Source of the DNA: Protoeuglena noctilucae | Taxonomy: Eukaryota | Length of the DNA: 64,000 nt | Direction of reading: 5' to 3' | Assembly: GCA_958009085.1 (NCBI GenBank) | Contig: OY253685.1 | Span: 372,001-436,000 of the forward strand | Shown here: one piece after another, positions 1,675 to 61,306 of the stretch | Position numbering within the stretch: the first letter of the stretch is position 1 | How the letters are laid out: each line of letters begins with the position of its first letter | Made by a program: the position numbers and the translations under genes | Notes under the pieces: model-generated | Told to the model about the DNA's origin: nothing | Database searches by the model: none | What the model saw: the letters and a program-made list of their open reading frames with translations, nothing else

Positions 1675-1748
1675 TCCGGCTTAGCTCAGTTGGTTAGAGC
1701 GCACGGCTGTTAACCGTGAGGTCGCAAGTTCGACCCTTGCAGTCGGAG
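1675..1748 (+). tRNA. tRNA-Asn (GTT)
   Basis: Full cloverleaf: acceptor TCCGGCT/AGTCGGA, D-arm GCTC-AGTTGGTTA-GAGC, anticodon arm CACGG-CTGTTAA-CCGTG, T-arm GCAAG-TTCGACC-CTTGC, discriminator G. A TTTT Pol III terminator follows at ~1755. Confidence 0.95.
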
Positions 1749-1882
1749 CAAATCTTTTGGTGTGCCCAAGGATTACCCTACCGGGTATTGACCTACCCGC
1801 CTTCGGAGAGAAAGTCACCTACACTGCGCATGTGTAGGTACCTGTGTAGGTCAGCGCGAGCGCGAGGTCGCAAAACCCGTGC

Positions 1883-2060
1883 CGTGCCAAATGCACTGCA
1901 ACGATGGAAACCCCGGGGTGTCAGCTGCCCCGGGGGACGGCACTTCTGCCGCAAGGCGTGGCTCTGAGAGTCATAGCACCCCTCGACTGTTGAATCGCTC
2001 ATCATCATCGCAAAACCCCTGTCATAGCACCCCTCGACTGTTGAATCGCTCATCATCATC
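1883..2060 (+). repeat. Two 5'-truncated copies of the retrotransposon 3' end
   Basis: 1883-2009 matches 11279-11405 (127 bp, one mismatch seen). 2021-2060 repeats the last 40 bp. Both end in CATCATCATC. Confidence 0.8.
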
Positions 2061-2126
2061 AAAATTGGCGAGGGGGTGCGGTTGGGTGTTTTGCGTGCAT
2101 TCGCGACGGCTGATGCGGTCGCATAT

Positions 2127-2683
2127 CCCCTGGCAGGCGCCAGGCGGCAGCACGACGCGCTCGAGTTCTGCTGGTCGGGACAAGCCGCGCCCCCGAGTCT
2201 AGGGGGGCTTTCGGGGCGCTGCGCGCTGTGTGCGTGCAGAGGGACGGCAGGCTTTCGTGTCGGGGACGCAGAGCGACCGGCGGGACGCGGGGACCGCGCC
2301 GGTGGGACCAGGGTGGGGTCCGTTGTTAGCATGGGGCGAAAGTGCTCTGCGCCGTGGCATGGGGGCTTGTCTCTGCTTCGTTGCTTCGTTGTTGTATTTG
2401 TACCCAGGGGCCCGCTCGCGTGGCATCCTGCGGTTGCTCGTCCCGGCAGGGGCGGCGGTTCGGCGAAGGGGCTAGGGGCGCTGGAGCCCGGGGCGGCGGC
2501 CCCATAGCCTTAGGGTGGGGGGACCTAGCGGGGGCGGGCCAAGTGCCATATGCACTGCGATCATGGAACCCCCGGGGTGCGGCAGCCCCGGGGGAAGGCG
2601 CCCCTGTCGCGCGGGCCTAGCTCGTGCGGCGAGGATCCTGATGGACCTCAGCACCCTCAGCCATTGAACTGCACATCATCATC
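2127..2683 (+). mobile_element. Putative non-autonomous mini-element (diverged 5' end plus 3' end of the LINE, no ORF)
   Basis: 2127-2230 resembles 2689-2790 (CCCCTGGCAGGCGCCAGG...CGGGAC(A/G)AGCCGCGCCCC). 2468-2683 resembles 11203-11405 (GGGCTAGGGG...GCCTTAGGGTGGGG...CCTAGCGGGGGCGGGCCA...CATCATCATC). Confidence 0.6.
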
Positions 2684-2806
2684 GCAAAACCCCTGGCAGG
2701 CGCCAGGTGAAGGCACAGCCGCTCGGTCTCGTTGGCTCGGGACGAGCCGCGCCCCGGAGCCGAGGGGGGCTTGCGAGGCGCCGCGCGCGTGGCAGCGTGC
2801 GGTAAA

Positions 2807-5800
2807 ATGACGATCTGTAGCATGGATGGGCCGGGCGGCCGGCGGAAGGGGGTTGCGGCGACGGGGGCGGCCCGATCAGATGGTATTGTTAGCTCGAGCG
2901 TTCGGGGCCCGCGCGGTGGCGGGGCGGGGCCGGCGTCGGGTCTTTTGCATGCAGGGGGTTCAGAAGGTATCGCAGGAGGGTCTACGGGGGGCGGAGGAGG
3001 CGGAGCGGGCGCGGGTGCGCGGCGCGGGGGCGCGCTGGGGCAGCATGGCGGCGCGAGGAGAAGGGGGGGCGGGAGCGGTCCGCGAGGCCGGGGGAGCGGG
3101 AAGAGTCGGTCTGGAGGCGTTCAAAGCTCGGGAGCGCAAGGGTCGGAGGTCGGAGAGGCGTCGGGGGCGCGTATCGGCGCGCTCCCACCCATCCCGCTGC
3201 CGCCATTGGGGAATCTGCCCCCGCCGCCGCCGCCGCCGCCGCGGATGGCGCCCTCCGCGGTGCCGGCGCGCGGGCCACGGCGACGGGGAAGGCGGAGCGC
3301 GGCGCGGGACCTCGCGCCGGACGACCTGCGGGTCGTCAGCGTCAACGTGCGGGGGCTGTCGAGCGGGGCCATGGCGGGCAAGCGGGCGACGGTGCGGCGG
3401 CTGGTGCGGAGGCTGCGGGCGGACGTGGTGGTTCTACAGGAGGTCAAGATGCGGGCGGGGCAGGAGGCGGTGGCGTCGGGATTCTTCCCCCAATACTTCT
3501 GCCACTGGTCGCTGGACGAGAACGGCGGCCCGGGGGGCGTGGGGGTGCTGGTACATCGGGAGTCGGTGGCGGGCACGCCGAAGCGGCGCGGGGCGGACGT
3601 GGAAGGGCTGGCGGGGCGGGCGTGCGCAGTCGACCTCGCATGGGCCGACCGGCGCTTCACGGTGGTGGGGGTCTACGCGCCGGCGTCTGGGGGGGCGGCA
3701 GCGCACAGGGACTTCACTGCGCGGCTGCGGCATCTGATGCCGCCTCGCCAGGCGCACAGGGAGACGATCGTCGTTGGGGACTTCAACTGCACGTCGGGTC
3801 ACCCGCTCGAGCGGGCGTCCCGGCGCCACCACGACGACCTGGCCAAGGTCATCCACTGGACGGAGAACGTGACGGGACCGCAGGGGCTGGCGGACGTGCA
3901 CGTGCAGCTGGGGCTACGCCGGGACACCTACACGTGGTTCGGGGCGCGAGCGGAGGGGGCAGCAACGCCGGCGGCGCGCATCGACCGCTGCCTGGCGCGC
4001 CCGGCCCTGCTAGCCCGGCACCCGGCGACGCTGGCGGCGCGCTTCGTGCCCGGGCTGGACCACAAGGCGCTCGTCCTGACGCTGCGGCGGCGGGCAGACA
4101 GGGCCGCGGGGCGCAACCCGCTGCGGCAGGTCCGGCCGTTCTGGGCGCCGGGGAGCCATGAGGCCGAGCGATTCCAGCGGGGCGTGTGGAGGGACTTACC
4201 GGCGGACGGGCCGGGGTGCACGTCGGTGCGAGTGGCCTAGGTCATCCGGCACCGCGCGGAGGCGATCAACCTGGTGGTGCGGCGGCGGCGGGACGGGGAG
4301 CGGAGGCGTCTGGAGAAGCAACTGGGACGGGCGGAGAGGAGGGCGCAGCGGACGAACGCGACGGAGGACTGGGACCGGATGCTAGACCTGCAGCGCCAGC
4401 TGACGGTGCTGGAGCAGCAGGAGGTCCAGTGGCAGAGCGAGCGGGCGAAGCACTTTCTGCGGGTCTTCGGGGCCGTGCCGAGTCGGCGGATCACGGCCCA
4501 TTTCAAGTGGCGGCGGCGGGCCGAGGGCGTCACGGACGACCTCGCGCGGGACCTGCAGACCAACATGGCCCAGCTCTACGCCCCTGCCGCGCCCCCGGCC
4601 TCCGCGGACGGCCAACATGAGCGGGCGCGCGCCAACTTCCTGCGCAACCCGCGGTCGCCGCTGTCGGAGGAGGCGAGGGCCGCTCTCGAGGCAGACGTGA
4701 CACGGGCGGAGGCGGCTGAGGCGATACAGGGTCTACGGGGCGACAGCTGCGGTGGCGCGGACGGCATCTCCCCGGCGCTGCTCAGGGCGTGCCAGGGCAC
4801 CGGGACCGAGGCGGGCGTCGAGCGGGTGGTCGCCTACTTCGTAAACAAGCTCCTCCGCGGCGAGGGGCACGACGGCCGCCTCGCGGACGCCGCCATCACG
4901 CTCATCCACAAGGGCGGCTCGCGGACGGACTGGCGGCGGTACCGCCCCATCTCCCTACTGTCCGTCCTCTACAAGGCTTCGGCCAAGGTGCTGACGGCGC
5001 GGCTGCTGCGGGTGCTGCCGCAGCTCGTGCACGAGGACCAGTTGGGTTTCGTCCCCGGGCGTGACATTGGGACGGCCATCTACTCGCTGCATCTGCTCGA
5101 CGAGCTCATGCGCATCCGGCGGCAGTCTGCGTGGGCGGTGCTGGTGGACTTCGAACAGGCGTACGACACGGCCTTCCGGGGGTGGGCTGCGGACGCGATG
5201 GCGTGGGGAGGGCTCCCGCCGCGTTTTGTCAAGGCGGCGGTGGCGCTGCAGAGCGACAGCCGGGCGAGCCTGGTCCTCAATGGGGCGGCGGGGGAGCCGT
5301 TCCCGCTCAACCGGGGCGTCAAGCAGGGATGCCCCCTGAGCTCATCTTCGTGCTGGCGGTGGAGCCCCTCGCAGAGAGGCTGCGGGCGTGGGGCCAGGAG
5401 CCGGTGCAGCTGCCGGGCGGCCCGCGGTGCGACCGCGTGCTCGGCATCCGGACGACGGGCGGCAGGGCCGAGACGCTTCTGGCCTTCGCCGACGACTTCA
5501 ACGTGCTGCTCCAACGGCTCGTGGCGCGCGACAGGAACCAACTCGACCCGTGGCGGGAGCTGGCCGAGGTGCTGCGGGACTTCCACCGTGTGTCCGGGCT
5601 GAAGGCGAGCCAGACCAAGACGAAGCTCTACCGACTGGGACGCATCAACAAGCGGCAGGAGGCCAAGGCCGCCGCGCAGGGCTGCCCGTGGGGGGTGGAG
5701 CTGGGGGGCGTGCGGCTGCTGGGGGCGCAGACGAGAGAGCAGGCGGCGCTGGTGTGGCCCGGGCGGCTGGGGGAGGCCCTGCGCCGCGCGGACGCGGCGT

Positions 5801-8376
5801 CATCGCTGGGGCTGCCGATCCGGGGTCGGGCGCGCGTCGCCAACGCCTACATCACCTCGCTCGCGGGGTACCACCTCGAGATGTCCCCCGCCGCCGACCA
5901 CTCGTGCGTCGCTGACCTGCGGAGGGTCCAGGAGCGCTATGTCCTCAACGCACGATCGGCGGGGCAGGTGTGGTTCCGTGTGGGCCGCATCATGCTGACC
6001 GCCCCGCCGGAGGGTGGGGGGCTGGGCGCCCTCCCGCTGGACGCGCACACGGCGGCGCGGCGGCTCCGGCACCTGGCGCGCGCCCTCATCACGAAGCGCG
6101 TGGGCGCTCACGGCCAGTTGGACGGTCTCGCTGGCATCCTCACGGCGTGCCTGGAGGGGCTCGGGGCAGGCCGGCTGGGCCTGCTGCCCTTCTCACTGCC
6201 CGAGACGGACGGTTGCCACGTGGCGCAGTTGATCGAGTCCCGCCGCCTGCGGGGCAAGCTGCCGGCGCTCGAGAGCTTCTGCGACGCCATCAAGAGCCTC
6301 GGGACCCTGCGCGCGACCCTCGGGCCCGTGCACGCGCCGCCACCTCTGGCACCCACGACGGACGAGGTCGCCCGGCAGCGCTGGACCGGCCTGGCGGCGG
6401 AGGGCCGGCTGACGCTCAACTTCGACGGGGGCTCGCGGGGCAACGGCTCCGACACGTCCACGGCTGGCGCGGGGGCGGTGCTGGCGGCCGGGGAAGGCGA
6501 GGGGGTGGAGACGCTGGAGCTCGCGGGCCCCGCCGTGCGCGGGGCCTCCAACAACCAGGCCGAGTTCGCCGCGCTTTTGGGAGGGCTGCGCGCGGCAGTC
6601 GAGCTCGGCGCCACCAAGCTCCGCGTCCGGGGGGACTCCCTCCTCGTCATCCGCGCCATGGACCCGCGGGACTGCTCGGTGCTGCGGCACCCGGCGCTGG
6701 TGCCGCTGTGGACCGAGGCGCAGAGGCTCGCGGCGGGCCTCGACATCACTTGGGAGCACGTGCCACGGGAGCAGAACGCCCTGGCGGACCGCCTGTCCAA
6801 CGTGGCCATGGACGGGCATGGCTGGCGGGGGGCGCGCATGGGCGGCGGGGGCCTGGCGGGCACGGACGGCTCGCGTTTCGCCTCTTCTACGGACTTCTTC
6901 ACCCCCGTCACTGGGACTACAAAGGGGGATCTACTCTGCGCGTCGCTTCTCACCCCGGGGGTCCTCTGTGCCGCCGGCGGGGGGGCTCCGGGCGCGGGGG
7001 TGGCAGGCCTGGGGGCGCCGGCGATGGAGGGGGCAGCTGGCCCCCTCCACAACGACATGGGACAGGACCAAGACGATTCGGCCTCATCGCTCCACAGCTT
7101 CGCGACGGGCGCCCATGGGAGGGCTGGTGGGGCGTGGGTGCACGACGGCGCGTCGGGCGACGACAATACGGATGATGGGATCGACGAGGGGGGTGCTGGG
7201 CGGCCGGCGGGGGGCGGCCGGCCCCTCCTCCTGCACCCGGTGGGGAGGGCGATGGCGTAGCGGGGGTTCGGAACTGTGGGGCATTATCTCTGCATGCGGG
7301 ACCCGGCGCGGCGATGGGACACGTGGGTCTCCTGGGCGTTCGCGCTGGGCTATGATCGGCTGCCGGGGATGGATCGGAGGGGCCTCGGCTGGGTGGTTGG
7401 GGCTTTTATGCGGGACCTGGGCCTCCTTGGGCCGGGCATACTCGTTGCCCGGCCAGACGTGGAGGGGCAATGGGACCCGTGGGACGGGCTGGCGCTCACG
7501 GAAGGCTTCATGGAGCGCCTGCGACTCGCCTCCCCGGGCGGCGGGGAGGCCAACGACTTCTACCGGCCCATGACGGCCACCGCGCCGGGCTGGGCACTGG
7601 ACCCCGGCGTCGCCTCCAAGGCGGCGCTGGACCTGGCCTCCTACACGGTGCGGGAGGCGGCGAGGACGACGTGTGACAGGGCGGCGATCCGGCAGCGGCT
7701 GGAGCGCAAGGCGGAGGGCTGGGCGGCGGCGCTGGGGGAGGGACACGGCTTAACGGGAGAGGGATTGAGGCGCACGCTGGTGGCGCTCAACGGGCTGCCG
7801 CTGTCGGACGCCCTGCACGAGCGGCTGTGGCTGACGCTGGCGGACGGGTGGGCTACGCAGGACAGGATGTACTGGGCGGAGCGGGACGAGTGCCCGCTGC
7901 TGACGGAGGAGGGGGAGGCGTGCATGGGAAAGGACAGCGCGGCCCACGCGTTCTGGGAGTGCTCGCGCGCGCGGGAGGTGTGGCGCGTGGCGAGGGGCAT
8001 CGTGGCGTGGGCGGGGGGGGCGCAGGGGGCGCCCCTCCGCCTGTCGGCCCTCTTCCTGTTGCGCGTGCCGGAGGGCGCGCGGTTGGGGCCGCTCACGTGG
8101 GCGGTCGTGGCGGGGGCGACCGTGCAGGTCATCTGGCGCAGGCGGCAGCAGCTGACGAAGGACGCGGGGGCGGACGCGTACCCGGCACAGCTGTTCGCGC
8201 AGATGGCGCGCATCATGGCCGAGGAGCTCGTCGCTCTGGCGGCGTACCGGGGCGGGCGGGCCCTCGCGCGCTGCACGCACCCTGACGACGCCCTCTTACA
8301 CCCAAGGGACCCGGCGAGGTCCACCTTCACCTACACTGCGCCCACATGGGCAGCCGTCGAGCCGCTACTCCCCTGA
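2807..8376 (+). pseudogene. Disrupted LINE polyprotein: Gly/Arg-rich N-terminus, APE endonuclease, reverse transcriptase, archaeal-type RNase H, zf-RVT
   Basis: APE motifs VSVNVRGL, VVLQEVK, GVYAP, VVGDFN, IDRCL, LDHKAL. RT motifs YRPISLL, QLGFVPGR, LVDFEQAYD, GVKQGCPLS, AFADD. RNH motifs FDGGSRGN, NNQAEF, RGDS, EQNALADRLSN. zf-RVT CPLL...C...DSAAHAFWEC. In-frame TAG at 4238-4240 and 7258-7260, frameshift at ~5340, no introns seen. Confidence 0.9.
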
Positions 8377-8420
8377 GGGGGGCTCTTCATTCGCAGCTCG
8401 CCATCACCCCACGACATTCG

Positions 8421-8485
8421 GGCCGGGGCGCCGGCGCCGGACGGGTGGCCTTCGGGCTGCTCGTTCCGGCGTCGGCGCCCCGGCC
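8421..8485 (+). other. ~30-bp RNA hairpin capped by a C(UUCG)G tetraloop in the LINE 3' UTR
   Basis: GGCCGGGGCGCCGGCGCCGGA-CGGGTGGCC-TTCG-GGCTGCTCG-TTCCGGCGTCGGCGCCCCGGCC. The non-Watson-Crick positions are mostly G-U on the + strand. Confidence 0.85.
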
Positions 8486-10512
8486 AACTGGGGCGTCCAC
8501 GGCCACACTGAGCATCTACGGAAGAGCCCGTCTGCCGGCTAAAACAAGCTCCCCTGCACCCAGGATGATGATATGGGCTGGAGCATCGCACGGCGGCGCC
8601 ACCGGCGATCCCCTGGGCTGCCTGGCCGGAGCCGGAGCCTGAGAGGGGCCGCGGGCGGGGGGTCCACGCGATGCGCGCGCAGCCGCAGGGGCGTGGGGCG
8701 CGCTGTGGCGGCAAGGGCGGGCGCCTCACGGGGAGGGTGCCGGCGCTCGGGACACCAAGGGCTTCTGCGCACCCACGCTCCATCTCTCGCATGCCTCGCA
8801 GGTTCTCGGACGCACACTCGACAGCTTTACCCACACGCCTTCTCCTCACCTGCCCCGCAGCCGGCCATGCCACCCCACCCCAATGCGCATTACTCCCACA
8901 TCCACCCGACCGCATTGCTCCCACCAGGGCCCTAAGCCAGCCCACTGCCTTCCTATGACGCACACTTTTCACCCCCCACATCACACTGCACACGCACCCT
9001 GCCCCAGCAGCACTCACCCGCATGCCACGCCTCCCCGTCCATGCCCGCAGCTAACAGATAGATGCCTCTTCCAACCAGACCACACACACCGTCTTACTCT
9101 CTGCACGCACCCTCGTCACTCATCTCACGATCTCGCCGCTCAGCACCACTCTTGCCCACTCACCGCGCATCACCACTGACATACACACGTTCACCTCTCA
9201 ACCCCCTCTCCTCTTCCACATGGACCCCCACATAAACCACCTTCCTGCTCAGCACGCATCATCTCCCACCCCTCCTCCTGGCAGCCCCACGCCACACCCT
9301 TCTCACGGACCACGCCCCCGCACACACCTCACCTCACACGCCCAACCAGACTCGCCCTTTTCGCAAGCCCTCCTGCCCCACGCACTCCCCCCCTAGCTGC
9401 ACAGGTAAGGCTCAGCACCCTCTCCTCACAGCTAATGCCCACGTGAGCACTCACACCCCTCAGCGCATCACTCCCCACGCACCAAGCACCACACACCGAT
9501 CCAGCACAGCATCTGCACCTCCTGACCTCCCCCAATCACGCACAGACCTCCTCGCATCCTCCCACGACCACCCTCTTGGCCAGCCGCAGGTCAGGACCCA
9601 CACCAACACTCATCCTCCGCCACGCACACCGTCACCTCTCCCTGACCGCAGACCTGGACGGACGCGCAGACGCACCCTTGCCTCACCCCTAGCCCTTTGC
9701 AGCCATGCCTCGCAGGCCCTTGGTGTCCCACAGCCGCCAGCGCTCACCCGTGGGGCGTCTGCTCCGTCGCCGTCGCGGCGCGCCCCGCACACCCACGGTA
9801 CTGCGCGTGCCGCGTGGCCTCCCCGCCCGTGGTCCTTCAGGGGCTCTGGCGCTGGTCGGGTGGGTCCGCGTGGGGGTCGCCAGCGCGTCGCATGTGCTCC
9901 AGCCAACGTGAGAGACCAGCCCCGCTGGGGGGGGCTGGCAAAGGGTGCGACGGGGGACAAACGTCGGGGCAGAGCTGGCACCAACGGGTTGATGGGCTCA
10001 GACAGTGGCGAGAGACGTGGCGCCCGTGGGGTGGAACGCCGGGGATGTCGTGGGAACACCCGGCAGTGGCGCAGAACGGACCAGGCGCCACAGGATCAGA
10101 GAGCGGCGTGGCTGCGACGAGGCGGGGAGAGTGGGGGCGCAAGTGGGCCGGAGGGCCTGTCTTTGGGAGTCTGCTGAGGAGGCCCTGCAGGAGAGCAACG
10201 GATGGCGAGGGGTGCTGGCGCCCGGCATGATGGCGCTGGCGGGGGCGACCCCTCGCACGACACACAGCAGGGCAGCGGGCTTTTGGGGGCGGGCGCGATG
10301 GCAGCGCGGCAAGAGCGAGCGGCGGCGGCGAGAGTAACACAAGGGGCATCGAATGGTGTGGGTGGGCATGGGCTGGGCGACACAGGGGTGTCGGGTGTTT
10401 GGGGGGGCGACGGGGGCGCGAGGCAGGCCGAGGTCCTCTGGATGCGCAGGGGCGCGTGAGCGGGGGGCAGGCCTCGGTTATCAGGGCGCGCGGGTGCGCG
10501 GAGCGGGGGGTG

Positions 10513-10680: not shown

Positions 10681-11547
10681 TGGGCGTGTGGGGGCGAGGA
10701 GTTGAGGGACGGGCCAAGGCCGACGGGCGCGGGAGAGGACGGGCCAAGGGCCAAGATCGACGTGCGGGAGCGAGGAGCGGGGCCGCGTCGTGGGTCTCTG
10801 GGCACACGGCCGAGTGGGTCGTGCCGGCGCACGCACCCGGAGCGGGGCGGTCTGGGGCGGTCCACATGAGAGGCAGCCGGCCCTCAGGGGCGCAGCGTGG
10901 GCGAGCGGGGCGCCCAGGGGCAACGCTGCGCCCCCCAAGGAACGCCGTCTGCGTTCGGACCGTCCCCACCGCCCTCGCGTTCGGGCCAGCGTCGCCGGGT
11001 GGGCGAGCCAGCCGGGCCGCCTGAGGAGGATGGGAGGAGGGTAGGGAGCGGGGGATGTCATGATTGGCCGCCCATAAGCTACACAGATCGTCATTAGCCT
11101 CGGCCTCACCTTTTGTAATAGACGCCCGGGGGTCTCCAAGGAGGGCCCCCGCGGCTGCATCGTCCCACTCTGGGACGGCGATTCTGCCTTAGGGCGCAGC
11201 GAGGGGGCTAGGGGTGCAAGAACCCGGGGTGGGCGACCCCTTTGCCTTAGGGTGGGGCAACCTAGCGGGGGCGGGCCACGTGCCAAATGCACTGCAACGA
11301 TGGAAACCCCGGGGTGTCAGCTGCCCCGGGGGACGGCACTTCTGCCGCAAGGCGTGGCTCTGAGAGTCATAGCACCCCTCGACTATTGAATCGCTCATCA
11401 TCATCACGACCTTCACCTTCACCTTCACGCCGAAGCGCGATTCACGTTCCGGTTGTAGCTTGGTGAGACGGGATACGGTCGGGGCTGCCTCGCCTGGGCC
11501 GAGCGTTCCTGGGACCTGCACCAGCACCCTGGGGTTCTGCTGCAGTC

Positions 11548-18293: not shown

Positions 18294-19783
18294 ATGGCGA
18301 CGGCGGTTTCCGCGACCGGCGCGGTCCAGCGCCTGGCTCCCCGCGTGGGGATGAAGCCGGCGAGGAGGGTGAGCGTCGGGATCCGGCTTGGCGTCCCGTC
18401 CCTCGCCTGGAATGCCTCGTTTCCTCGCGTCTGCCTAGCTAACCGATCCGCTGTCCATGCGTTGCCGCTCACTACGCCGATCTCGTGGTGGTGCTTTCAC
18501 TTTCGCCCCCGGGCCTGCGCTATCGAGGAAGCGTCGGGAAGTTCGTGGCTGGGGGCCCCCCGCGCCGTCGAGAGGCGCATCCTGGTCCTTTGCGACGTCG
18601 ATGGACCTGTTTCCGGCCGATGTGGATTCGAGGGGATCCCAGGGTCGTTGCCGAGCCCTGGGGTGCGCACGATCGAGGTCCTGGAATGTCACCTCATCCA
18701 CACCCCATCGCGTCGCTCCCGGCTTTCCCCCGGCTGGGAGATTCGCGTAGTCGAATTGCCGTGTCGTAGGGAGTCGGCGCTCGCTTTCCTGGGAGCCCAG
18801 GTTCTTCCTGCTAGCGAAAGACGACGCCGGGCATTTCCGTGCCTCGGCCGCGTTTTCCGACTCCCAGACGCGTCTCATTCCACAACCCCGCTAGATTCTG
18901 TCCTTGGCATACGCGTACTTCCGCATGCGCAGCCAAAAAGATCCCTCCGCTATGTGTTGTGTTGCCCAGGCTGTGGCGGCGTCGGCCGTCGAGCTCAAGG
19001 CCCCCCCGTACCCCCTCAACGCCCTCGAGCCCCACATGTCCGAGAACACGATGAACTTCCACTGGGGCAAGCACCACCGCGCGTACGTCGACAACCTCAA
19101 CAACCAGATCAAGGGCACTGAGTTTGAGAACAAGAGCCTGGAGGAGATCGTGCTCGGGAGCTGGAACAACGGCAAGCCGAACCCCATGTTCAACAACGCT
19201 GCTCAGGCAAGCGATGTTGCCGCGCCGGGAGACGCAGCGACCATCGTGCGGTCGCTTTCATCAGGTAGAGGACGTGATGTCCAGTCTCTTCGCCCACCGC
19301 AGGTGTGGAACCACACGTTCTTCTGGGAGTCGATGAAGCCCAACGGGGGCGGCAAGCCCACGGGGGAGGTGGCCAAGGCCATCGATGCGGCGTTCGGGTG
19401 CTTCGATGAGTTCAAGGTCAGGCCAAGGATCCCCCGTGCCCGACGGCACGCGGCCGGCACCGGAGTCACAACGACGCGCCCTGAGCTAGCCCGGTGCCCG
19501 TCTCCCGCAGACCCAGTTCAAGCAGGCCGGGGCCACGCAGTTCGGCTCCGGGTGGGCGTGGCTGGTGGTGGACCCCGCGGACAAGAAGCTCAAGATCGTC
19601 AAGACGCCGAACGCGGAGAACCCCGTGTGCATGGGCATGAAGCCCATCCTCACGATGGACGTCTGGGAGCACGCGTACTACCTCGACACGCAGAACCGCC
19701 GCCCCGACTACATGACCACCTTCGTCGACAAGCTCATCAACTGGGACGCGGTCGAGGCGCGCTACAAGGCCGCCATGAAGTGA
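18294..19783 (+). CDS. FSD: Iron superoxide dismutase, plastid-targeted (4 exons)
   Basis: Transit-like MATAVSAT..., then [57 protein letters not shown]. Confidence 0.93.
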
Positions 19784-19846
19784 GCGCGCGATGGGCGTAG
19801 ACCCTCGCAGCCGGGGCCCTCGCTGATTGAAGTCCGCCACGTCACT

Positions 19847-22800
19847 TCATTCGCGCCGGCCACCCCGGGCAGCGGGTGTCTCAAGCTTGGACATCACGGC
19901 CTCGTACTGGCCCATCGTCCGGGCGTGCTCCTCGCGGAGCCTGCGAGCCCAGCGACGATTCGCCGTCTTCACGTGACGTGCCTCTTGACCTTCCCCCACA
20001 CTGCTCGTGTCTGCCGTCACTCACCTCCGCAGCTTCTCTGCCGTGCTGGCCGTGTCCCCGAGCATGTCCTGTGCCTCGCCGTGTCCCTCCATGGCCAGGG
20101 CCTCCGCTGCCTCGCGGACTGCGCTGGCTTCCTGGTCCTCGGCCTGCACAGAGGGACAGCGCATCCATACATGGCGCCTTGTCAAGAGAGCAACCGACGC
20201 GCATGCACCCTTCGCATGCGGCTGCGGCCTCGCCTCCTGCTGCCGCGCCCGCAACTCCTCAGTAAAAGACTCAAAGAGCTCAGCCCTCCGCTTCTCCTCC
20301 GGCACACCGCTGTACTGGGGTTCGGCCCGGACGCGGCGCCGCACGGCCGCCCACGTGTCGCTCGGGGAAAGCGACGGATCACGCAGCGACCTGCGACGAC
20401 GTCACGTGGCAACGGTGCTGCTGACGGCAGTCGAAGCATGCCACTCCCATGCCAAGCCTCCCGGCCCACCCCACAGCACCTCAAGAGCTCCAGGAACGCG
20501 GCCTCTGCCTCCCTCGTCTGCTGCTGCACCTCCACGACCTTGACGCAGTCGATGTACACGGCCGTGAAGAGCTCCTCCCGCTCGCGTTCCTCCGTCACCC
20601 GCTGCGGGCCAAGAGACGCTGCCGCTGCTCCCATGGAGGTGCACGTGCCAGCATGCACGCGTGCATGGCTCATGGACGCAGTCTCACTCGGAAGCGCGGG
20701 TCGCGCTTCATCGCCGCACGTGCCGTGTCCCACCCCTGCGCCGCCGCGACCCCCTCCGGCCCTCCCAGGCACTCAAGCACCATCGCGCGGAATGCCTCCT
20801 CCGTCGCCTCCTTCTCCTTCTGGAGGGACTCGAGCACCATCGCTGCAGAAAGGGACGAGGCATCACTCGGCCTGCGTTGGGACTGCTTTGGCCTCCAAAC
20901 CCCGAGCAGCCGCTGCGCCTGGGGACCCTGACCTTTGAACTGGGCGAAGAGCGCCTCTCTCCTCGCCGCTGGCACGCGGCCGTACCGAGCGAAGCTTTCA
21001 ATCTTTGCCTCCACGACGTCCCACTCCGCCTCGGGGTCCCTGCGTGGGCCAAGGCGGACGTGGCTGGGCGAGAGGGAGCACGCGGACGCTGCACGGCAAA
21101 ACGCTCAGCAGCCGCGGCCCCCACCTCACGACCTCGTCCCGCAGCTCCTCGTTCAGGAGCCCCAGGAAGGCCCTCTCGGCCTCCACTGCCGCGGCCCGGC
21201 GCTGCAGCGAGTCCAGGCCCTCGATCAGTGAGCCCAGCAAGCTGCCGCCCGTGCGCAGGGCTGACGAAGTCAGGGTGTTGAAGCCGCCGACGAGGCCCCC
21301 GGTGATGGCGCCCGCAGCGCGCTTGGTGAACGTCGCACCCAGCTTCTCCGCCGAGGCAGCCGTCGAAGCCGCAGCCGCGCTCGCCTCTGCGCAGAGCGAC
21401 AGGAGACGACGGTGGGTGTCGGCTGCGTGCAAGACCCCCCCCGCATCATAAGGGCCGAAACGGCAGGCACCTTTGATCAGCGCCTCGGCCGCCGTCGGGC
21501 CCTCCGACTCCCTGCCCCGGCCTGGCTGCGAGGCTGTCGTGAGGGCCCCCATGGCCTCGTCCATGAGTTTCCGCATAAAGGCCAGGCTTCCTTCCATGCC
21601 TTTCAGCACCTCTTTCGCCTCCCTGCGCGTGCGGCGAGGGTGTGAGTCGGAAATGGACGCGAGCAGAAGCAGGGTGCACGACCTGAGGCCGCTGACTCAC
21701 GCAAGCTCCTCCCCGACCTCGTCCCCCGCCTGCGCGCGCTTCGTGAGCGCCTTGACGACCATGGTCTGCCGCTGCGTGGCCGACTCGACGCGCCGCATGT
21801 TCGCCGCAATGCCGTTCACGCGGTTGGCCAGGCGCGCAAACAGCGTGGCCGGGCGCGGCTCCGGGGCTGGCACGCTCGCCCCAGCGTCTGCGAGAGGAGC
21901 GTGCGGAGTTGACACGCCACTCCACTCGCACGCAATGGCTTGCGGACGCGCTCCAACCCCCTCGCCTGGGAGCTCGGGACTCACGCCCGAGGTCGGCGGC
22001 GACAGAAATGGGTGCGCCAGCGCCTCAGAGATGGAGATACGCGTCTGCTGGGGGTCCACCACGTCCATGACCGAGAACATGCCGCGGTACCCCTCGGCGC
22101 CAAAGCTCCGCGGCAGCAGCATCTTGGCAGCCAGGTCCCACCCCGCGCCGCCATCCATGTCCAAAATGTCCGTCTGACCTTGCAGCGCATGCATGTTCCT
22201 CTGCAGAGGGGGCGTATTGCTTCAGTCTGTCATGAAACATAAGCGGACGGCCATGGTGCCCACCGCACCCGATGCCGCTGCCCTACTGTGGCCCACCTTG
22301 CGCCATTTGGACAGGTTGTACTTGCACTGCCGCAGACCGTCCGAGAACGTCTTGAGTCCCCGGTCCGAGCGGATCATGGGAACGGCAAGCTGCATGAGGA
22401 TGAGGCCGGCGGCGTAGACGTCGAAGCGGTCGGGCTGCGGGGAAAGGCGTGTGGCGATGTCAGCGCCGGTATTCGCTGCGATGAGCCCTACGATGGCGAC
22501 CCTCGCGGCGTGCTCCTCACCTTGTGCTGCAGCCACATCACGGGCCCCATCATGGCCTGCTGGAGGCGGTTGTGCTTGGCGAGGTGCGGGGCGTGCACGG
22601 GCACCACGTACTGCTCCGGGGGGCAGTAGAGGGGGTCGAGGATGGCCTCGGCAGGGTTGAAGTTGGTGCCGGACCGGAGGTCGGCGCACGCGCCCAGGTC
22701 GATAAGCTTCAGCCGCCGGATGTCCTCCGCCACGATTATGTTGAGGGGCTTGACGTCCCGGTGCACCAGTCCGAGGCTGTGCAGCCTGTCACATGCCTCG

Positions 22801-24010
22801 AGGATCTGGCGCATGGCCACGGGGACCACCTGTGGGCGGGAGGAGGAGCACGCGAGGCATGCAACAACCGTCCAGGTGTCCCAACGGGCGTGTGGGTCTC
22901 CCCCCAACCCCCGGGACCGACCTGCTTTGTCGACACCCCCATGGCCGTCGCGAGGGCTTGCAGCGTGTCCTTGCGGCGGAGGAAGTAGGACAACGTGTGC
23001 CGCCCCTCGTACTTCCACACCAGCCATAGGCCCTCCACGATGCCCGGCGTGGCCGTCTCCGGCGTCGCCTCGATGTAACCCCTGCGCCGGGAGGAGGCGC
23101 ATTTGTGGGTCGCATCGTTTCCGAGGACCGGACACCGTGTGCCCCCGAGGCACGGGCCAAGACCCCACCTGAAGTCCGCACACACGCCCGGGGCACACTT
23201 GGACACGAAGACCTGCGGGGCAGCGCAAGGCCAGCGGATGGGGGGTCGGTGACGTCAGCGGTGCAAGGAAATATGACAGCAGGGTCCCGACTAGGCCCCC
23301 TCACGTTCAGCAGGTGCTCCATCTGCCCCATCTCGTCCGCCCCCGCCACGCGCTGCTTCACTCGCTTGACGACCACGTGCTCCGTCTCCCCGTCGAAGCG
23401 CTTGAGCCTCCCCTGAGGACGATCGGGCAAGGCAGCGCGGTTTCGGGCCTGCCTTTCGCCGCCACGCTTTGCAGGGTCGCATCCATTGCCCGCGCATGCT
23501 GCGGCCCGCTCCGATCCACGAGCGACACCGGTGGGCCGCGTGGTCGAAGTGCATCCCCTCAGAGTGCGCAGAGTGCGCCCCGGCGGACGCCGCGGCTGCG
23601 GGAAAGCCGTTGTTGCTGCGACCCCCACATCCCGCGCTGGGCTGTTTCCGGGGCCCTCGGCGGCGAGGGCCGTCGCGAGTGTTTGAAAAATGTCGTTAAC
23701 AGCAGCGACTGACCTCGAAGACCGACCCGAAGCTCCCCTCGCCGAGCAGGCGCTCGAGGCGGACGTCAGAAGGCTCGAAGCGGATGCCACGAGACCCAAT
23801 GACCGCCCGCGCGATGAGCGATGTCCTCCACGGACGACGTGGAGCCAGGGAGGGGCCGCGCCTCCTCGCCGGAGGGCAAGGGGGGGTGGCCCTGCGGTGC
23901 CACAGCGGCAGGGCTGCCCTGCCCGGGCAGGGCACAAGCCCCAGGCGAGAGACCGGCCCCAAACCCCCATCTCCCAGGGCCCCAGAAGCTTGCGTGCTTG
24001 CCAGGCTCAT
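19847..24010 (-). CDS. STT7/STN7-like plastid Ser/Thr kinase with C-terminal FF-like repeats (multi-exon)
   Basis: LGEGSFGSVF, VVVKRVK, WLVWKYEG, LVHRDVKPLN, IDLGACADLRSGTNFNP, LDPLYCPPEQY, PDRFDVYAAG, GWDLAAKML. FF-like motifs lie downstream. Confidence 0.85.
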
Positions 24011-24419: not shown

Positions 24420-27400
24420 ATGCGGTCTACCATCCACAGGAGCAGGATGTCGCAATGTGCGTCGCTTGTGCGGGGCCTGAGGGGCGTCCCGCCCTCTTCT
24501 TTCGCGCGATCTGCTCCCCTCGCTGCTGTGAGACTGTGCGGATTGCAACGGATGTCCGAGCCGCTCCATCTCTTCGCGGGGAGCCACCCGTACCGGTCGC
24601 GCCCCCCGGCTGCCACAGCTGCGAGGGACTCCCCGGCCGCGACCAGCGACGTCCCTCAGGTGATGATTGTTGCCAAGCCGGATGGGACTCACGCCATGCT
24701 TCTGGCGGCACTGCAGCTTGATCCCCCACCGCCATCGACTTTGCAGGCGGGTGCGCACCTCGAGTGGCCAAGGCGTTCCCACGGCGCGGGCACCATCCGT
24801 TGCAGCCACGAGGGGGAGGTGGTCGAGATATGTGGGTGGATTGACAGCGTGAGGTAAGAGGCAATCTAGGTCGAGGAGCTCTCAAGCGAGGGGTCGTGGT
24901 GCCGACAGCCAGGCTGCCGGACCTCTGCAGGGACCTGGGGGGGATGCTCTTCTTCACGGCGCGGGACCACACGGGTGTTCTACAATTCATCGTAAGCGAG
25001 GACTTCCCCGAGGCGGCTGAGGCGGCAGCCAAGCTGCGTGTGGAGGTGACGCGCCGCTCGCTCGTCGAGCGCATACCCGGCCGCCAGGCGCGCGCCCCGT
25101 GATAAGCACTTCCGATACGCTCCGCAGTGCTGCGTGAAAGCTTCGGGCAAAGTGGCGCGCCGTTCCGACCCGAACCCGAACATGCCGACGGGCGAAGTGG
25201 AGGTGGTGCTACAGCAGCTCTCCATCCTGAATGGCACGGGTGTCCTCCCCTTCTCGGGTGCGTTTGGGCCGTAGCTGCGATTACACGACACCCCACGTGA
25301 TGACTTCACGTGCCCTCGATGCGTCGCCTGGTGCGTCTGGTCGTCCATGCCCTAGGCCGACCGTGTCCGCAGTGTCCGCGATGGAGAGGTCCGCCGAAGT
25401 GCCCACGGAGGAGACACGCCTCAGGTACCGCGTGCTCGACCTACGGCGGCAGCAGATGCAGCGCAACCTGCGCCTGCGCCACGACCTCGTCCGCACCATA
25501 CGCCGGTACCTGGAGGACGAGCAGGGATTCCTGGAGCTCGAGACTCCCATGCTCACGAAGGTGCTCGGACACTATCCTGGCGTAGACATGGCCTCCTTGC
25601 TTTCCCGGCAGGGACGTGCACCCACCTCGCCCCCTCCCCCTCCCCATGGCAGTCCACCCCGGAGGGTGCCCGCGACTTCCTCGTCCCCTCCCGCCTCTCC
25701 CCTGGTGATTTCTACGCCCTGCCACAGTCTCCCCAGCTCTTCAAGCAGCTGCTCATGGTCGCGGGCTTCGACCGGTACTACCAGCTCGCCCGCTGCTTCC
25801 GCGACGAGGCTCTGCGGGCCGACCGCCAGCCCGAGTTCACCCAGCTGGACATGGAGATGGCGTTCCTCGACAGGCGAGTCGGCATGTGGACGGGTGCTGC
25901 TGCTGCCGGGTCGCCCTGGCACTCGCGTGCTGTTCCTGAGGACAGTCGAGGGCGATGGTGCGCAGGGAGGCGGTGCTGTCGCTTGTGGAGGGGATGATCT
26001 CTCGCGTGTTCAAGGCCATTTTGGGCGTGGAGCTCCCGGTGCCCCTGCCGCGCATGACGTATGCCGAGGCCATGGAGCGGTACGGCTGCGACAAGCCCGA
26101 CACTCGCTTCGGCCTCGAGCTCACCACCGTGACGGAATGCGTGCGCGGGTGCGGGTTCAAGGTGCTCGCCGAGGCCGTGCAGGGCGGGGCCACGGTGCGC
26201 GCCCTGCGCGTCCACGACGGCCAGCGCCTCTCCAACGCCCGCATCAAGCCCAAGGGGGACGTCGCCGAGGAGGCCATCAAGGGTGGCCTGCCTGGGTGAG
26301 GTGGACGAGGATCGCGTTCTAACAGCCCTCTACCTCAGTCGTGTGGGCGATGTCCCCGTGCTGGCACGCGACGTACGCGTCGATGCCCTCGCAGGCTGGT
26401 GTACATCCGCGTCGGAGAGGGCGGTGCCATCGATGCGGCCAAACCTGTCAAGGAGGGGTTGTCGCCCGAACAAGTGGCAGCCATGCTCGAGGCATGCCAG
26501 GCTCAGGTGGGTCAACGCTGCTGCATGGGGCCTTGCTCGCACAGGCATCGGCCAAGGGTCTGAGGCAGCTATGGCCTGCTGCTTAGTTCGGGAGTATGCG
26601 TGTTCGCAGCCGGGTGACCTCCTCCTCCTGGCTGCTGGGCCCGCGAGCCTCGTCAACAAGGCCATGGACCGCGTCCGCAATTTCTTGGGCGAGTCGCTGG
26701 GGGGGGTGCGGGAGGGCGAGCACAAGCTCCTGTGGATCGTCGACTTCCCCATGTTTGAGCTGAACGAGGAGGTGAGAGAGCTGCGTGGTTGCGGCGCGCT
26801 GCCATGGCCGTCTCGTGTCGGCACTGCTGACTGCAATCTCGTGACGCTCCGGGCAATCGGACGCATTCCCAGGAGAACCGTCTCCAAGCGCTCCATCACC
26901 CCTTCACCGCCCCCCACCCGGACGACCTGGGTGACCTCCCGAGGGCACGGGCGCTGGCGTACGACCTCGTCTACAACGGCGTGGAGATTGGCGGTGGCTC
27001 CCTCCGCATCTACACGGCGGAGGTGCAGAAGAAGGCGAGACGGCTGTGCCGACGGGACGCGGGTTGGGCATGGCGCCCCACACTGCGGCCATACTGACCA
27101 CTGGCCTTGGGGAGCCGCTGTATCTGCGTGACCGAGGGCTGCCGGCCGCTCGCAGGTGTTTGAGGTGATTGGACTGCAGGATGCGGAGGCGCGGCAACAG
27201 TTCGGGTTCCTGCTCGACGCGCTCGAGAACGGCGCCCCGCCCCACGCGGGCCTCGCGTTTGGGGTCGACCGCCTGGCGATGCTGCTGGCCGCGGCCAAGG
27301 TGAGGCATGGTGAGTGGGATACGGTCGCACATTCAACAGCCTCTCCGCGTTCAAGAGAGGGATCGGCGCCTTCGCAGTACGGCAAGGACGCTGCAACGTC

Positions 27401-38520: not shown

Positions 38521-39805
38521 TCACTGCCTCCGAGTGAAATCGTCCCATCCCTTCGGCGGCCGCCACAGGGACTTCGCTGCCTCATCGGACAGGCGCTGGC
38601 GGCCGGATGGGTCGACGGCCCCCTCCCACCCCTGGCGATCCATGGCACGGTTGCTAAGCTCGTCCGCACGCGTATTCTGAGCTCTGCGTCCGTTGAAATC
38701 GAAGAGTCTTCGTCAGCAGCGGGAACAGGGGCCACGCTGGTGACGTCGTGACATTCGTGACATGGTGGCCCAGGTGGCACCTGGGCACGTGGCGGATCGA
38801 CGCCGAGTCGAAGCGGCCCATCAGGGCTTGCGCCTCATCCCGCAGAACAGACAGGCCGTGCTGATTGCACTGCCATTTCCCCTTGAGCTGTTCGACCACC
38901 AGTTTGGAGTCCCTGCGTGCAAAGCGAGGACATGTGTAGGAGACCTGACAGCGAACAGGCGCGACGGCCACTCCTGGCGGGGAGCTCAGCTCGTAACCGC
39001 TCCGCACAGCACCGCACCCTTCAATCTCGAGCTTCTTGATGCCCATCGCCGCGGCACAGCGCAGGCCGGCGACGAGGGCCATGTATTCTGCCCGGTTGTT
39101 CGTCGTCTGCTCCGTAAAGCCGGCCATGGCAGCCACCTCCTGGCCCTTCGAATCCATGATCTGAGTGCGGCCAAGCCCCCAGACGTGAACAAGCTGCCAC
39201 CCCCAGCAGCGCAGCAGCGCTCTCAGTAAGGATAACCATGCCGCGCCCTCACCACAGCCCCACTGCCGGCAACACCCGTATGGGAGTTGGACCTGCTCCC
39301 GCCGTCGAACATCAGCTTGTACACCTCGCTGTGGGCCGGCTTCTCTGGCGCACTGCGAGGCACTCCCGCGGGGCTCTCGTCGGGGCTGTCCGCTCGAGCC
39401 GTGTGGGACGGAGGGACCGAAGATACGTGCCGGCAACTTGGCCCCGACTCATGGCGCTGCCCGCCTGGAAACACCGCCGGCCTCTTCGCCGATGTGTATG
39501 TGCCGCTCGTTCCCGCCGCGAACGCCCTGGCATCCGCCTCGCTGTCGAACCGCTTGTGAACAGCCCCAGGAAACCCCTTAACCCGCGCTTCCGCCTCCGC
39601 CCACGACGAATAGACCCCGACCTCGCGTCCCTGCTGCACGGCGTAGTACGCCTCGCGCGGCCGCTTTCCACCCATCCCCTCCGCGCCTGGATCCGGCACA
39701 GCACGATGCCCTCCCACCGCCTGCACCCTCGGTAAGCGAAGCGCGCGAGACGCGAGGGTCGGGGGAGCCCAGCGCCACAGCGGGACGTGCGAGAGGCGGG
39801 GCATG
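38521..39805 (-). CDS. RNH1: Host RNase H1: hybrid-binding domain plus archaeal-type RNase H domain, with probable organellar transit peptide
   Basis: YYAVQQGREVGVYSSWAEAEARVKGFPGAVHKRF, LMFDGGSRSN, TNNRAEYMAL, EGDSKLVVEQL, HVPRAQNTRADELSNRAMD. Confidence 0.9.
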
Positions 39806-60295: not shown

Positions 60296-60354
60296 TTCAA
60301 CTTCGCACGATATCACGCACGGGGATCGGCCACAAGCGAAGGGAAGGGGGCGCC

Positions 60355-61306
60355 TCACGCCATAGCGCAGCCGCAGCCGTCGCTCGAGGACAGCAGCAAG
60401 TTGGCCATCTCCCGCGTCGGCTTGCGGAAGAAGACAAAGTGGCCCAGGCCGACGCCGAGCACGACCGCGAAGAAGATGCCTGCAAGCGCAGTTGCAGTTG
60501 GGGCCTCCTGTATTGGGGCCTGCACACCCACCCAAAGCGACACCCTTGTGCCGCCCTCGCCGCCCGTGTCGCGCCAGCTCGGCGCAGGCAATTATGAGCA
60601 CATCCGCATGCTCACCGACGTCGAAGGTCATGGCCGCAAGCATGAGAAGGTAGCCCAGGGTGGCGCTGAAGAGGTACAGGAGGCTAACCACGAGGCGCCC
60701 GACGGGCTTGGTGGCATGGGCGAAGGCGTCCACGGGCGTGGGCACCTTGCGCTTCTTGCACGGGTTGTTGCGCTTCGGGAGCACCTTGATCTCCCCCAAG
60801 GACGTCCCGCAGCAGTCCGAGCTGCTGTTGGCGCTCCCGTCCGCGCACGAATGCTGCGCGGGGGCAGGAGATCACGGATTGGCCGCGCGAGCTCGTCGAC
60901 TGGCAAGGGACGGAGGCTGGGCGAGGCCAGGCGCGTCTCGCCTCGGTTCCGCAGGGGAAGTAGGCCTGGTGCAGCTTCGTCCGGAACGTGATCACCGCCT
61001 CATTGAGGACTCCGATGAGAATGACCCCAATGAAGGCAGCCGCGTACGCCCCTGGGTCCGTGGACGCGTTCACGGTCCACTTCCGCAGCCACAGCGAGAT
61101 GGTCGTTCCCTGCGCTCGTGCGAGCGATCCGCGAGCGTTGCGGCGCTGTCCCGCGATGAAACATGAGCCCAAGTGTCGGCGGTTGCAGCGGGGAGGGCGC
61201 GGGGCCTCACCGTCGTGAAGTACATGCTCATGTTCATCTCCATCCCCCCCGAGGAGCCCCCCATGGACATCCCCCCCATCCCGCCCATGCCGCTCATCCC
61301 GTTCAT
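60355..61306 (-). CDS. COPT: Ctr/COPT copper transporter
   Basis: Met-rich N-terminus MNGMSGMGGM...MSMYF, GYLLMLAAMTF (MxxxM), GVGLG (GxxxG). Confidence 0.92.

Follow-up and report, generated by a model that had tools for sequence, protein, structure and literature searches.

Where does the ribonuclease H (RNase H) domain of a long interspersed nuclear element (LINE) in the genome of Protoeuglena noctilucae come from, and does it belong to the element at all? The LINE lies near the start of the 64,000-nucleotide stretch analysed here (GenBank assembly GCA_958009085.1, contig OY253685.1, positions 372,001 to 436,000), which we call the window; all coordinates are those of the whole window, and its GC content is 60-74% per 2 kb. 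A cellular RNase H1 gene lies 32 kb from the element's RNase H. An original prediction, made from the sequence, proposed that the LINE carries an archaeal-type RNase H ahead of a zf-RVT zinc knuckle, captured independently and possibly from an algal host gene like the one nearby, and that the element defines an undescribed L1/Tx1 lineage. We consider it probable that the domain (hereafter the LINE RNH) is a working part of a young, multi-copy, one-protein L1-like LINE, and that it goes back to an ancient, single uptake of a cellular archaeal-type RNase H (aRNH) with a lengthened loop, placed upstream of the knuckle.

Retroelements have taken up aRNHs repeatedly, as seen in plant Ta11 L1 elements, plant Tat long terminal repeat (LTR) elements, oomycete L1 elements, Chronos, Archon and Utopia. 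The aRNH-bearing Ta11-type L1 elements of land plants were reportedly treated by Smyshlyaev et al. in 2013, and the Dualen/RandI LINEs by Kojima and Fujiwara in 2005.

An archaeal-type RNase H within the LINE reading frame

Four stop-to-stop frames on the + strand are collinear across the element; 2711-4240 and 4241-5602 share one frame, and 5065-7260 and 7261-8376 share another. Read together, they give the following features:

2807 to 8376, + strand: single long LINE reading frame, from ATG at 2807 to TGA at 8374-8376, broken in the window copy
3338 to 4027, + strand: apurinic/apyrimidinic-type endonuclease (APE) domain (Pfam Exo_endo_phos, E 1.1e-16, residues 210-439 of ORF 2711-4237)
4931 to 5634, + strand: reverse transcriptase (RT; Pfam RVT_1, E 7.4e-15), with a 4-bp deletion after 5339 in the window copy
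6325 to 6390, + strand: Pro-rich linker preceding the RNH (PVHAPPPLAPTTDEVARQRW...), from the translation
6391 to 6825, + strand: archaeal-type (aRNH) type-1 RNase H (Pfam RVT_3; envelope of the RNH profile, residues 443-587 of the third frame)
6826 to 7257, + strand: low-complexity linker, 144 aa long, acidic and rich in Gly (24%), from the translation
7261 to 8373, + strand: C-terminal domain with an atypical zinc-knuckle-like motif at 7891-7962 (our own profile; no Pfam match)

The first ~175 aa of the open reading frame (ORF) are Gly/Arg-rich, and neither the ORF list nor inspection of the sequence made a separate ORF1 evident upstream of the ATG at 2807. The APE domain also matches the exodeoxyribonuclease 2jc5 in the PDB (E 1.7e-5), and a post-RT region of ~250 aa separates the RT from the Pro-rich linker. 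The predicted protein would run from the Gly/Arg-rich N-terminus through APE, RT, post-RT region, Pro-rich linker, aRNH and Gly-rich linker to a knuckle-bearing C-terminal domain.

The RNase H was originally placed at 6400-6815, flanked by Pro- and Gly-rich linkers, and both the domain (profile envelope 6391-6825) and the linkers on either side (6325-6390 and 6826-7257) were recovered. The LINE RNH matches Pfam RVT_3 (PF13456) with 49.4 bits (E 5.2e-13; cut-off 21.6), while its score against the general RNase_H model PF00075 (21.6 bits) is under the cut-off of 25.8. In the frame of ORF 5065-7260, its motifs are FDGGSRGN (D at 6424-6426), NNQAEFA (E at 6562-6564), RGDSLLV (D at 6634-6636) and HVPREQNALADRLSN (R at 6766-6768, D at 6787-6789). 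These and their host counterparts, four motif pairs in all, are present in the sequence as had been proposed, and the expected D-E-D-D catalytic residues are joined by an Arg, giving a conserved D-E-D-R-D set (D454, E500, D524, R568 and D575 of ORF 5065-7257).

Among solved structures, the closest are the RNase H domain of Mycobacterium tuberculosis Rv2228c (3hst, E 8.2e-20), Halobacterium RNase HI (4e19, E 5.5e-14) and Sulfolobus tokodaii RNase HI (3aly, E 1.2e-9), and the catalytic columns align with those of Rv2228c and the Halobacterium enzyme. According to passages of two earlier papers, Arg rather than His at the fifth conserved position marks the archaeal-like subgroup as against the Fungi/Metazoa type (fmRNH) (PMC5348765, PMC4640811). 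The LINE RNH has Arg at this position, within HVPREQN. Together with the RVT_3 match, this bears out the proposed archaeal type, and the LINE RNH is, as judged from its sequence, a complete archaeal-type RNase H with its active-site residues intact. Its coding sequence is intronless, and neither Pfam nor the translation gave any trace of a hybrid-binding domain upstream of it.

Intact copies of the family

The LINE copy in the window is dead, with two in-frame TAGs and a 4-bp deletion. We compared it, over 1800-9000, with contigs from three metatranscriptome runs and one organism-labelled run. All four runs carry an extra GCCC after 5339, which accounts for the frameshift near 5340. The two stop codons are:

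4238 to 4240, + strand: in-frame TAG between APE and RT, in the window copy only (contigs of all four runs have A at 4238, giving AAG, Lys)
7258 to 7260, + strand: in-frame TAG, in the window copy only (Leu in paralogues)

A broken copy whose RNH is flanked by low-complexity linkers might be suspected of being an artefact, in which the RNH is a separate gene fragment, a nested insertion or a misassembly at this locus. Other copies speak strongly against this. The database protein P0151, a paralogue 98% identical to the window copy (1121 aa, representing a 90% cluster of 49 member sequences), reads without interruption through the pre-RT region, RT, RNH and Gly-rich linker into 127 aa of the C-terminal domain. 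It reads GCPLSPLIFVL over the frameshift site and, like P0001, ...GRAMALRGFG... over the second TAG site; it is thus open at two of the three breaks, and the third (4238) is open in the contigs of other copies. The frame from RT through RNH and linker into the C-terminal domain is also continuous in P0001 and P0152, and one 2232-nt RNA-library contig spans 4742-6969, from the RT into the Gly-rich linker. These intact paralogue frames, with the contigs of four independent runs, refute the artefact, to which we give next to no credence, and the claim that the RNH is an integral, in-frame part of an APE-RT LINE stands.

The LINE stretch is present in 15 listed runs from six studies, 12 of which hold at least half of the sampled words. 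Most are labelled marine metagenome and four are RNA libraries (metatranscriptomes); a second organism label holds 25% of the sampled LINE words. Between the window copy and the contigs we counted 37 coding-region substitutions (the 40 best-supported of 139 differences, minus three upstream of the ORF), of which 23 are synonymous and 14 nonsynonymous, with 3 to 1 in the RNH alone. From this pattern, the family appears to be under selection for its protein. It also appears to be young and recently active.

Some further observations concern these copies. At 7439-7445, the window copy has one extra base at 7439 and one fewer after 7445 relative to the contigs of all four runs, a compensated frameshift that turns GPGNEYARP into GPGILVARP. 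Summed over contigs, the depth in run X1 stays at 200-350 across most of 2764-6378, then reaches 444-902 over 7825-8788 and 1419 at 8789-9000, and contigs ~98-99% identical continue beyond the LINE stop codon to 9000. This rise towards the 3' end fits many 5'-truncated copies and a 3' untranslated region (UTR) continuing past 9000 into a C/A-rich low-complexity stretch. In the gene model P0001, calcium-binding EGF-like domains are joined to part of a LINE of this family (post-RT region, RNH, linker and the start of the C-terminal domain); most likely the prediction starts in a host gene and continues into a 5'-truncated LINE copy inserted there.

Position of the RNase H relative to the knuckle

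No Pfam domain was found in the C-terminal ORF (7261-8376), and when it was searched with phmmer against 112 LINE proteins, its own family alone matched. We therefore built a knuckle profile from 64 knuckle regions (C-x2-4-C-x6-9-H-x4-C plus flanks) of LINE proteins found through their RT. It scored 18.3 bits at the expected place in the C-terminal ORF; none of 2000 shuffled sequences equalled this, the best reaching 11.1. The motif, at 7891-7962, is C-x9-C-x7-H-x4-C (H-AFWEC-SRAREVW), in which the final Cys is followed by SRAREVW. Weak BLAST matches of the C-terminal ORF (to Lactuca, Aphanomyces-like, Globisporangium and other ORF2 proteins) all fall on knuckle regions. There is thus moderate evidence that this part of the predicted protein is a diverged L1-type C-terminal domain.

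The distance between the YxDD motif of the RT (FADD here) and the knuckle is 802-812 aa in the element. In 55 LINE relatives lacking an RNH, the median is 359 aa (range 303-534), which marks the RNH with its two linkers as an addition between RT and knuckle. The same heuristic gave 321-361 aa in eight relatives that have an RNH after the knuckle. According to passages of PMC5348765, Ta11 and oomycete L1 elements have a C-terminal aRNH preceded by the CCHC knuckle, whereas in other RNH-bearing non-LTR elements the knuckle follows the RNH. The proposal that the order here is the reverse of that in Ta11 agrees with this account and with the distances; whereas the aRNH of Ta11 and oomycete L1 elements is C-terminal, with CCHC upstream, that of the element lies ~360 aa upstream of the knuckle.

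Among 12 RNH-bearing LINE relatives whose domain order could be examined, the knuckle lies upstream of the RNH in nine, three with an aRNH (P0002, P0094, P0107) and six with a PF00075-type domain (P0213, P0216, P0221, P0224, P0247, P0255). The aRNH of one of these, the oomycete Globisporangium protein P0094, is C-terminal with CCHC upstream, as in oomycete L1 elements. A knuckle-like motif follows the RNH in two of the 12 (P0201 and P0202, both PF00075, fmRNH), and in one (P0236) the RNH lies between APE and RT. Dualen elements, as described in part of PMC5029228, have the order APE, RT, RNase H, CCHC, restriction-like endonuclease. The APE-RT-RNH-knuckle order is therefore uncommon, but its RT-RNH-knuckle part is shared with Dualen, P0201 and P0202. 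An RNH ahead of the knuckle is unusual for L1-like elements and for aRNHs, yet it is not new among LINEs, as these examples and the statement in PMC5348765 show.

Origin of the RNase H

The cellular RNase H1 gene in the window serves as a comparator and is not part of the element:

38521 to 39675, - strand: host RNase H1 gene (four-exon model, BLASTP, Pfam)

Its exons (39675-39253, 39160-39018, 38912-38781 and 38683-38521) encode 286 aa and are separated by introns of about 92-105 nt, all GT-AG. Pfam finds a hybrid-binding domain (Cauli_VI, E 6.8e-18) and RVT_3 (E 3.2e-14), and the gene is, from its predicted product, a normal cellular RNase H1 of the plant, algal and protist kind. The RNase H1 gene originally placed at 38521-39805 is thus present, although we model its extent as 38521-39675. 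A fragment of an MMS19 gene adjoins it.

The host protein was said to resemble the LINE RNH closely. The two are identical at 62 of 141 positions (44%) by BLASTP, and the match (E 3e-26) is far beyond chance. However, the closeness was overstated. The host RNase H1 ranks only 21st of 155 in similarity to the LINE RNH (81.8 bits), or 18th once three rows of the same family are removed, behind among others P0007 (104.9 bits) and the trebouxiophyte RNase H1 P0025 from Elliptochloris (86.4). A phmmer search of the LINE RNH against 1.84 billion cluster representatives gave 6338 matches at E<=1e-3. The only close one was P0001 (97%), a chimeric model with a fragment of the element's own family; after it came multi-domain proteins at 44% or less, and then stand-alone RNases H in a long plateau at 45-52%. 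With the nearest RNH outside the family only 44-52% identical, the acquisition would be ancient and not recent.

Several trees place the two domains apart. In a quick tree of 192 RNH domains, the LINE RNH stands alone on its branch, weakly beside P0146 (Shimodaira-Hasegawa-like approximate likelihood ratio test, SH-aLRT, 81), with the host elsewhere, and the two are also apart in a quick tree of a 71-row subset. A careful maximum-likelihood (ML) tree of the 71 rows puts the host RNase H1 among cellular and multi-RNH proteins, and the LINE RNH as sister to the LINE aRNHs of Diplonema papillatum (P0002) and P0107 (bootstrap 30, SH-aLRT 80). The backbone of the RNH tree lacks resolution because the alignment has only about 140 columns, a difficulty that earlier authors also met, as parts of their papers relate (PMC10508981, PMC4640811). 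Forcing the LINE RNH and the host RNase H1 into one clade costs 23.8 log-likelihood (lnL) units, with p 0.173 in the approximately unbiased (AU) test, so that a common clade is neither supported nor rejected.

The loop after the first catalytic Asp offers a further character. It could be measured in 145 of the 192 rows (47 could not be measured), and has the usual four residues (N-PGPA-G) in 114 of these. A loop of 6-8 residues occurs in 15 of the 145, including the LINE RNH (seven), the host RNase H1 (six), two RNase H1 proteins bearing a hybrid-binding domain and several stand-alone proteins. The Diplonema and P0107 LINE domains are also long-looped, and share with the LINE RNH the seven-residue form N-G-[ST]-x4. 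This suggests that the LINE RNH derives from a eukaryote-centred subgroup with a long loop, but the loop does not point to this host.

Was the LINE RNH captured from an RNase H1 of the host lineage, either the gene 32 kb away or an ancestor of it? Both are aRNHs, 44% identical, and both have a lengthened loop (seven and six residues against four in 114/145); the LINE RNH is intronless, as a capture derived from mRNA would be; and a common clade is compatible with the AU test. However, the host stands only 18th among matches from outside the family, and the host domain is itself closer to another cellular RNase H (52-53% identical to P0066) than to the LINE RNH. The two were not grouped in any of the three trees, the forced clade carries the likelihood cost given above, and no trace of a hybrid-binding domain precedes the LINE RNH. 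We regard capture from this host as improbable, and the original prediction is not upheld on this point: the host ranks 18th, the ML trees separate the two domains, and the AU result lends no support. The likeness is better read as that of a shared family, perhaps a shared subgroup, than as a recent copy. Cellular RNase H1 proteins with a hybrid-binding domain and an aRNH (the host's, and the trebouxiophyte P0025 and P0099) belong to the same catalytic family at 44-50% identity, the host's with a lengthened loop too. Unlike the LINE RNH, their genes have a hybrid-binding domain and introns and no fusion to an RT, and there is no specific phylogenetic tie.

Alternatively, the RNH may have come from another aRNH-bearing LINE of the Diplonema/P0107 kind, by descent or recombination, with its side of the knuckle switched later. 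The careful ML tree, in which the LINE RNH is sister to the P0107/Diplonema clade, and the seven-residue N-G-[ST]-x4 loop common to all of them favour this, and a shared origin with other LINE aRNHs may lie behind the weak sister position. These two points are not independent, since the loop columns stood in the alignment. The support for the grouping is low (30 by bootstrap, 80 by SH-aLRT), and the group is absent from the quick trees. The RTs are far apart, that of P0107 forming a long branch elsewhere in the RT trees, the RNH identity is only 44-49%, and the domain order differs, the knuckle lying upstream of the RNH in P0002 and P0107. An origin of this kind seems to us rather unlikely.

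The LINE proteins and tandem domains found in these searches are of some interest in themselves. P0107/P0261 and P0002 are L1-like LINE proteins with an aRNH outside plants and oomycetes, and we have met with no description of them. P0107 has the order APE-RT-knuckle-aRNH, with an N-terminal stretch that reads like the OTU protease motif (DGNC), while P0002 (KAJ9460018.1) has three RNH copies around an RT and probably represents tandem elements. A number of protist proteins (P0003-P0006, P0009-P0015, P0022, P0049, P0073 and P0134) have two or three tandem aRNH domains, some after SAP; one cluster includes a protein of the chrysophyte Dinobryon, and the first repeat is often divergent within a protein.

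We thus favour an uptake in which the aRNH was most likely acquired once, long ago, by the LINE lineage. Its source would have been a cellular aRNH of the subgroup with a long beta1-beta2 loop, without a hybrid-binding domain, and its insertion point would have been upstream of the knuckle, unlike the C-terminal position found in Ta11 and oomycete L1 elements. The acquisition may be a further case, independent of other LINE aRNHs.

Several results weigh against this account. Pfam zf-RVT gave no match in the C-terminal ORF even at E<=10; the original placement of the RNH ahead of zf-RVT therefore holds in that the RNH precedes a knuckle found by our own profile, but not for the Pfam domain itself. 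The canonical first Cys of this knuckle is a Gly, with another Cys seven residues upstream, and the region was seen in one copy. The AU result and the sister position of the Diplonema/P0107 domains bear on the origin of the RNH as set out above. On the side of activity, the contigs from RNA libraries are no proof that the LINE is transcribed, because DNA can occur in such libraries, and the substitution pattern comes from a selected part of the differences. Neither element ends, nor target-site duplications, nor a 3' tail were found at the window locus. Finally, the likely role of the RNH in second-strand synthesis is drawn from established LINE biology.

In that role, the element's RNase H would follow target-primed reverse transcription and strip the template RNA from its RNA:DNA hybrid, allowing second-strand synthesis and making the element independent of host RNase H. 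One study's title reportedly states that RNase H2 promotes LINE-1 retrotransposition.

Classification of the element

The best solved match to P0151 is human L1 ORF2p (PDB 8c8j, 8sxt; E 2.7e-25, residues 9-485 on 323-773), a match that takes in the RT and the part preceding it, ahead of R2 proteins (E 6e-10). Like the element, human ORF2p combines APE, RT and a Cys-rich C-terminal domain in one protein, but it lacks an RNase H. When the RT was used in a word-index search, 108 proteins were returned, the best outside the element's own family being 34-40% identical. The nearest RTs belong to APE-RT proteins of Aphanomyces, amphibians, lizards and unassigned contigs, with land-plant L1 elements bearing zf-RVT lower. 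PF13456 is present in one of the 108 (own family) and a PF00075 RNase H in nine.

The element forms a long orphan branch (1.3-1.45 substitutions/site) in two RT trees, one of 111 rows (FastTree) and one of 59 (IQ-TREE quick). It lies within an L1-like radiation that lacks resolution, and groups neither with the oomycete aRNH L1, nor with P0107, nor with an R2/Dualen-like clade. The trees held database RTs without Tx1, L1, Ta11, Zepp or Dualen references, and the class is therefore given no finer than L1/Tx1-like. On the evidence of its RT, the element is an L1-like APE-RT LINE, an orphan among L1-like elements whose nearest RT is 35-39% identical. The RT and RNH phylogenies agree with the original prediction in that the element joined none of the sampled aRNH-bearing LINEs with support.

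Could the element nonetheless belong to an already described family with the same order (an L1 in Repbase or Dfam, Dualen/RandI or the I group), so that nothing is new? Dualen, with its APE-RT-RNH-CCHC-endonuclease order (PMC5029228, in part), is known from algae including relatives of Chlamydomonas, as part of PMC8226300 reports. The partial account in PMC5348765 places CCHC downstream of the RNH in other RNH-bearing non-LTR elements, P0201 and P0202 have the order RT-fmRNH-knuckle, and our comparison was made without Repbase or Dfam entries. The element, like Dualen/RandI, has the order APE-RT-RNH-CCHC. However, whereas Dualen (compared here by its description and not by a reference sequence) ends in a restriction-like endonuclease, none was found in the element: the 140 aa after the knuckle gave no Pfam match, although whether Pfam holds a model for this endonuclease was unchecked, and no PD-(D/E)xK motif was seen by eye. 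With the same reservation about Pfam, the C-terminal ORF as a whole has no Pfam domain.

The knuckle is also of another type, H-x-F-W-E-C...W rather than the H..N.C...RHN of the R2/Dualen-like clade, the RT falls outside that clade, and the RNH is an aRNH and not of the PF00075 type. PF13456 among the RT relatives was confined to the element's own family. A screen of Repbase 20.08 found aRNHs only in elements of higher plants and oomycetes, according to the part of Ustyantsev et al. (2017) concerned (PMC5348765). Our searching of full-text literature found no algal LINE with an aRNH. A study of 40 green-algal genomes reports no aRNH-bearing LTR elements in the portion that treats them, LINEs not being its subject (PMC10508981), and the L1 passages of two accounts of chlorophyte L1/ZeppL elements (PMC8226300, PMC9940879) make no mention of RNase H, a statement that does not extend to the L1 protein supplement. 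Membership in a described family is therefore on the unlikely side, though it keeps a real share of our belief.

Against the other aRNH-bearing LINEs, the element resembles Ta11-type and oomycete L1 elements in being an L1-kind APE-RT LINE with an aRNH of the D-E-D-R-D set. Its RT does not group with those of plant L1 elements or P0094 with support, and its RNH does not fall with P0094/P0029. With the Diplonema papillatum (P0002) and P0107 LINEs, it shares the lengthened loop of the aRNH but not the RT.

Further searches returned little beyond the family. A word-index protein search with the RT-RNH part at near lengths gave four matches among 8000 scored candidates (own family and one bacterial RNH fusion), and one among longer proteins gave a single weak match; as such searches require shared 5-mers, this is weak evidence of rarity. 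A scan of JGI metagenome contigs with P0151 found the pattern in 132 stretches, of which none was confirmed, and the best ESM Atlas scores for the C-terminal half of P0151 (0.77 and 0.75) were uninformative.

An undescribed L1/Tx1 lineage is plausible, as originally suggested, and is set apart by database RTs and descriptions in the literature rather than by Repbase or Dfam entries. The fuller proposition is more tentative, and we would put it somewhat short of even: that this is an undescribed, currently active L1-like lineage of a marine, GC-rich protist or alga, whose uptake of a cellular long-loop aRNH, placed between the post-RT region and the knuckle, was independent of those in Ta11, oomycete L1, Utopia and Diplonema-type elements.

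If true, no aRNH-bearing LINE would have been described before from hosts other than land plants and oomycetes, nor any with this order. The lineage would add one more independent capture of an aRNH, and serve as a natural experiment on whether it matters where RNase H sits in ORF2p. An aRNH on a LINE is not a new kind of system but another instance of a known evolutionary theme; the recurrent uptake of aRNHs by retroelements serves to illustrate how evolution can be modular and convergent. Another uptake, in a different host group and with the domain on the opposite side of the knuckle, would indicate that the gain is not tied to one insertion point, and would widen the known host range. A Diplonema element with an aRNH also emerged from the searches. 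The family seems to be young, subject to purifying selection and represented in ocean RNA libraries, which makes it a candidate for testing the role of an element's own RNase H in a LINE.

Surrounding sequence

The LINE is preceded by repeats:

1883 to 2788, + strand: two diverged repeat-unit copies (about 80-83% identical), directly 5' of the LINE ORF (self-BLAST)

Self-BLAST pairs 2119-2226 with 2682-2788 (80%) and 2463-2610 with 11199-11348 (83%), and a solitary piece at 11279-11405 matches 1883-2009 at 99% identity. In three RNA-library runs, contigs connect 2541 back to 1883, a junction expected of tandem units, and in run X1 the depth over 1800-2040 is roughly tenfold that over the LINE body. 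The repeats may be promoter monomers of a 5' UTR or a separate small repeat.

Just 5' of them lies a tRNA-Asn(GTT) gene at 1675-1749 (+) (Rfam 66.8 bits; ARAGORN). It is the only candidate that Rfam and ARAGORN gave for a tRNA or snRNA target of the LINE, and no link to the element was found. Further local repeats (395-716 against 1187-1508, 87%; 932-1048 against 1062-1178, 99%) lie beside A/T runs that translate as poly-K or poly-F; those at 395-1508 may be the tails of other retroposons.

Elsewhere in the window, Pfam identifies fragments of host genes for Fe/Mn superoxide dismutase (18895-19797), a protein kinase (22491-23300), a class II aminoacyl-tRNA synthetase (25231-26319), MMS19 (40016-41593), cytidine deaminase (59552-60292) and a Ctr copper transporter (59861-60871). 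The matches cover about 40-70 aa of each frame, as short exons would.

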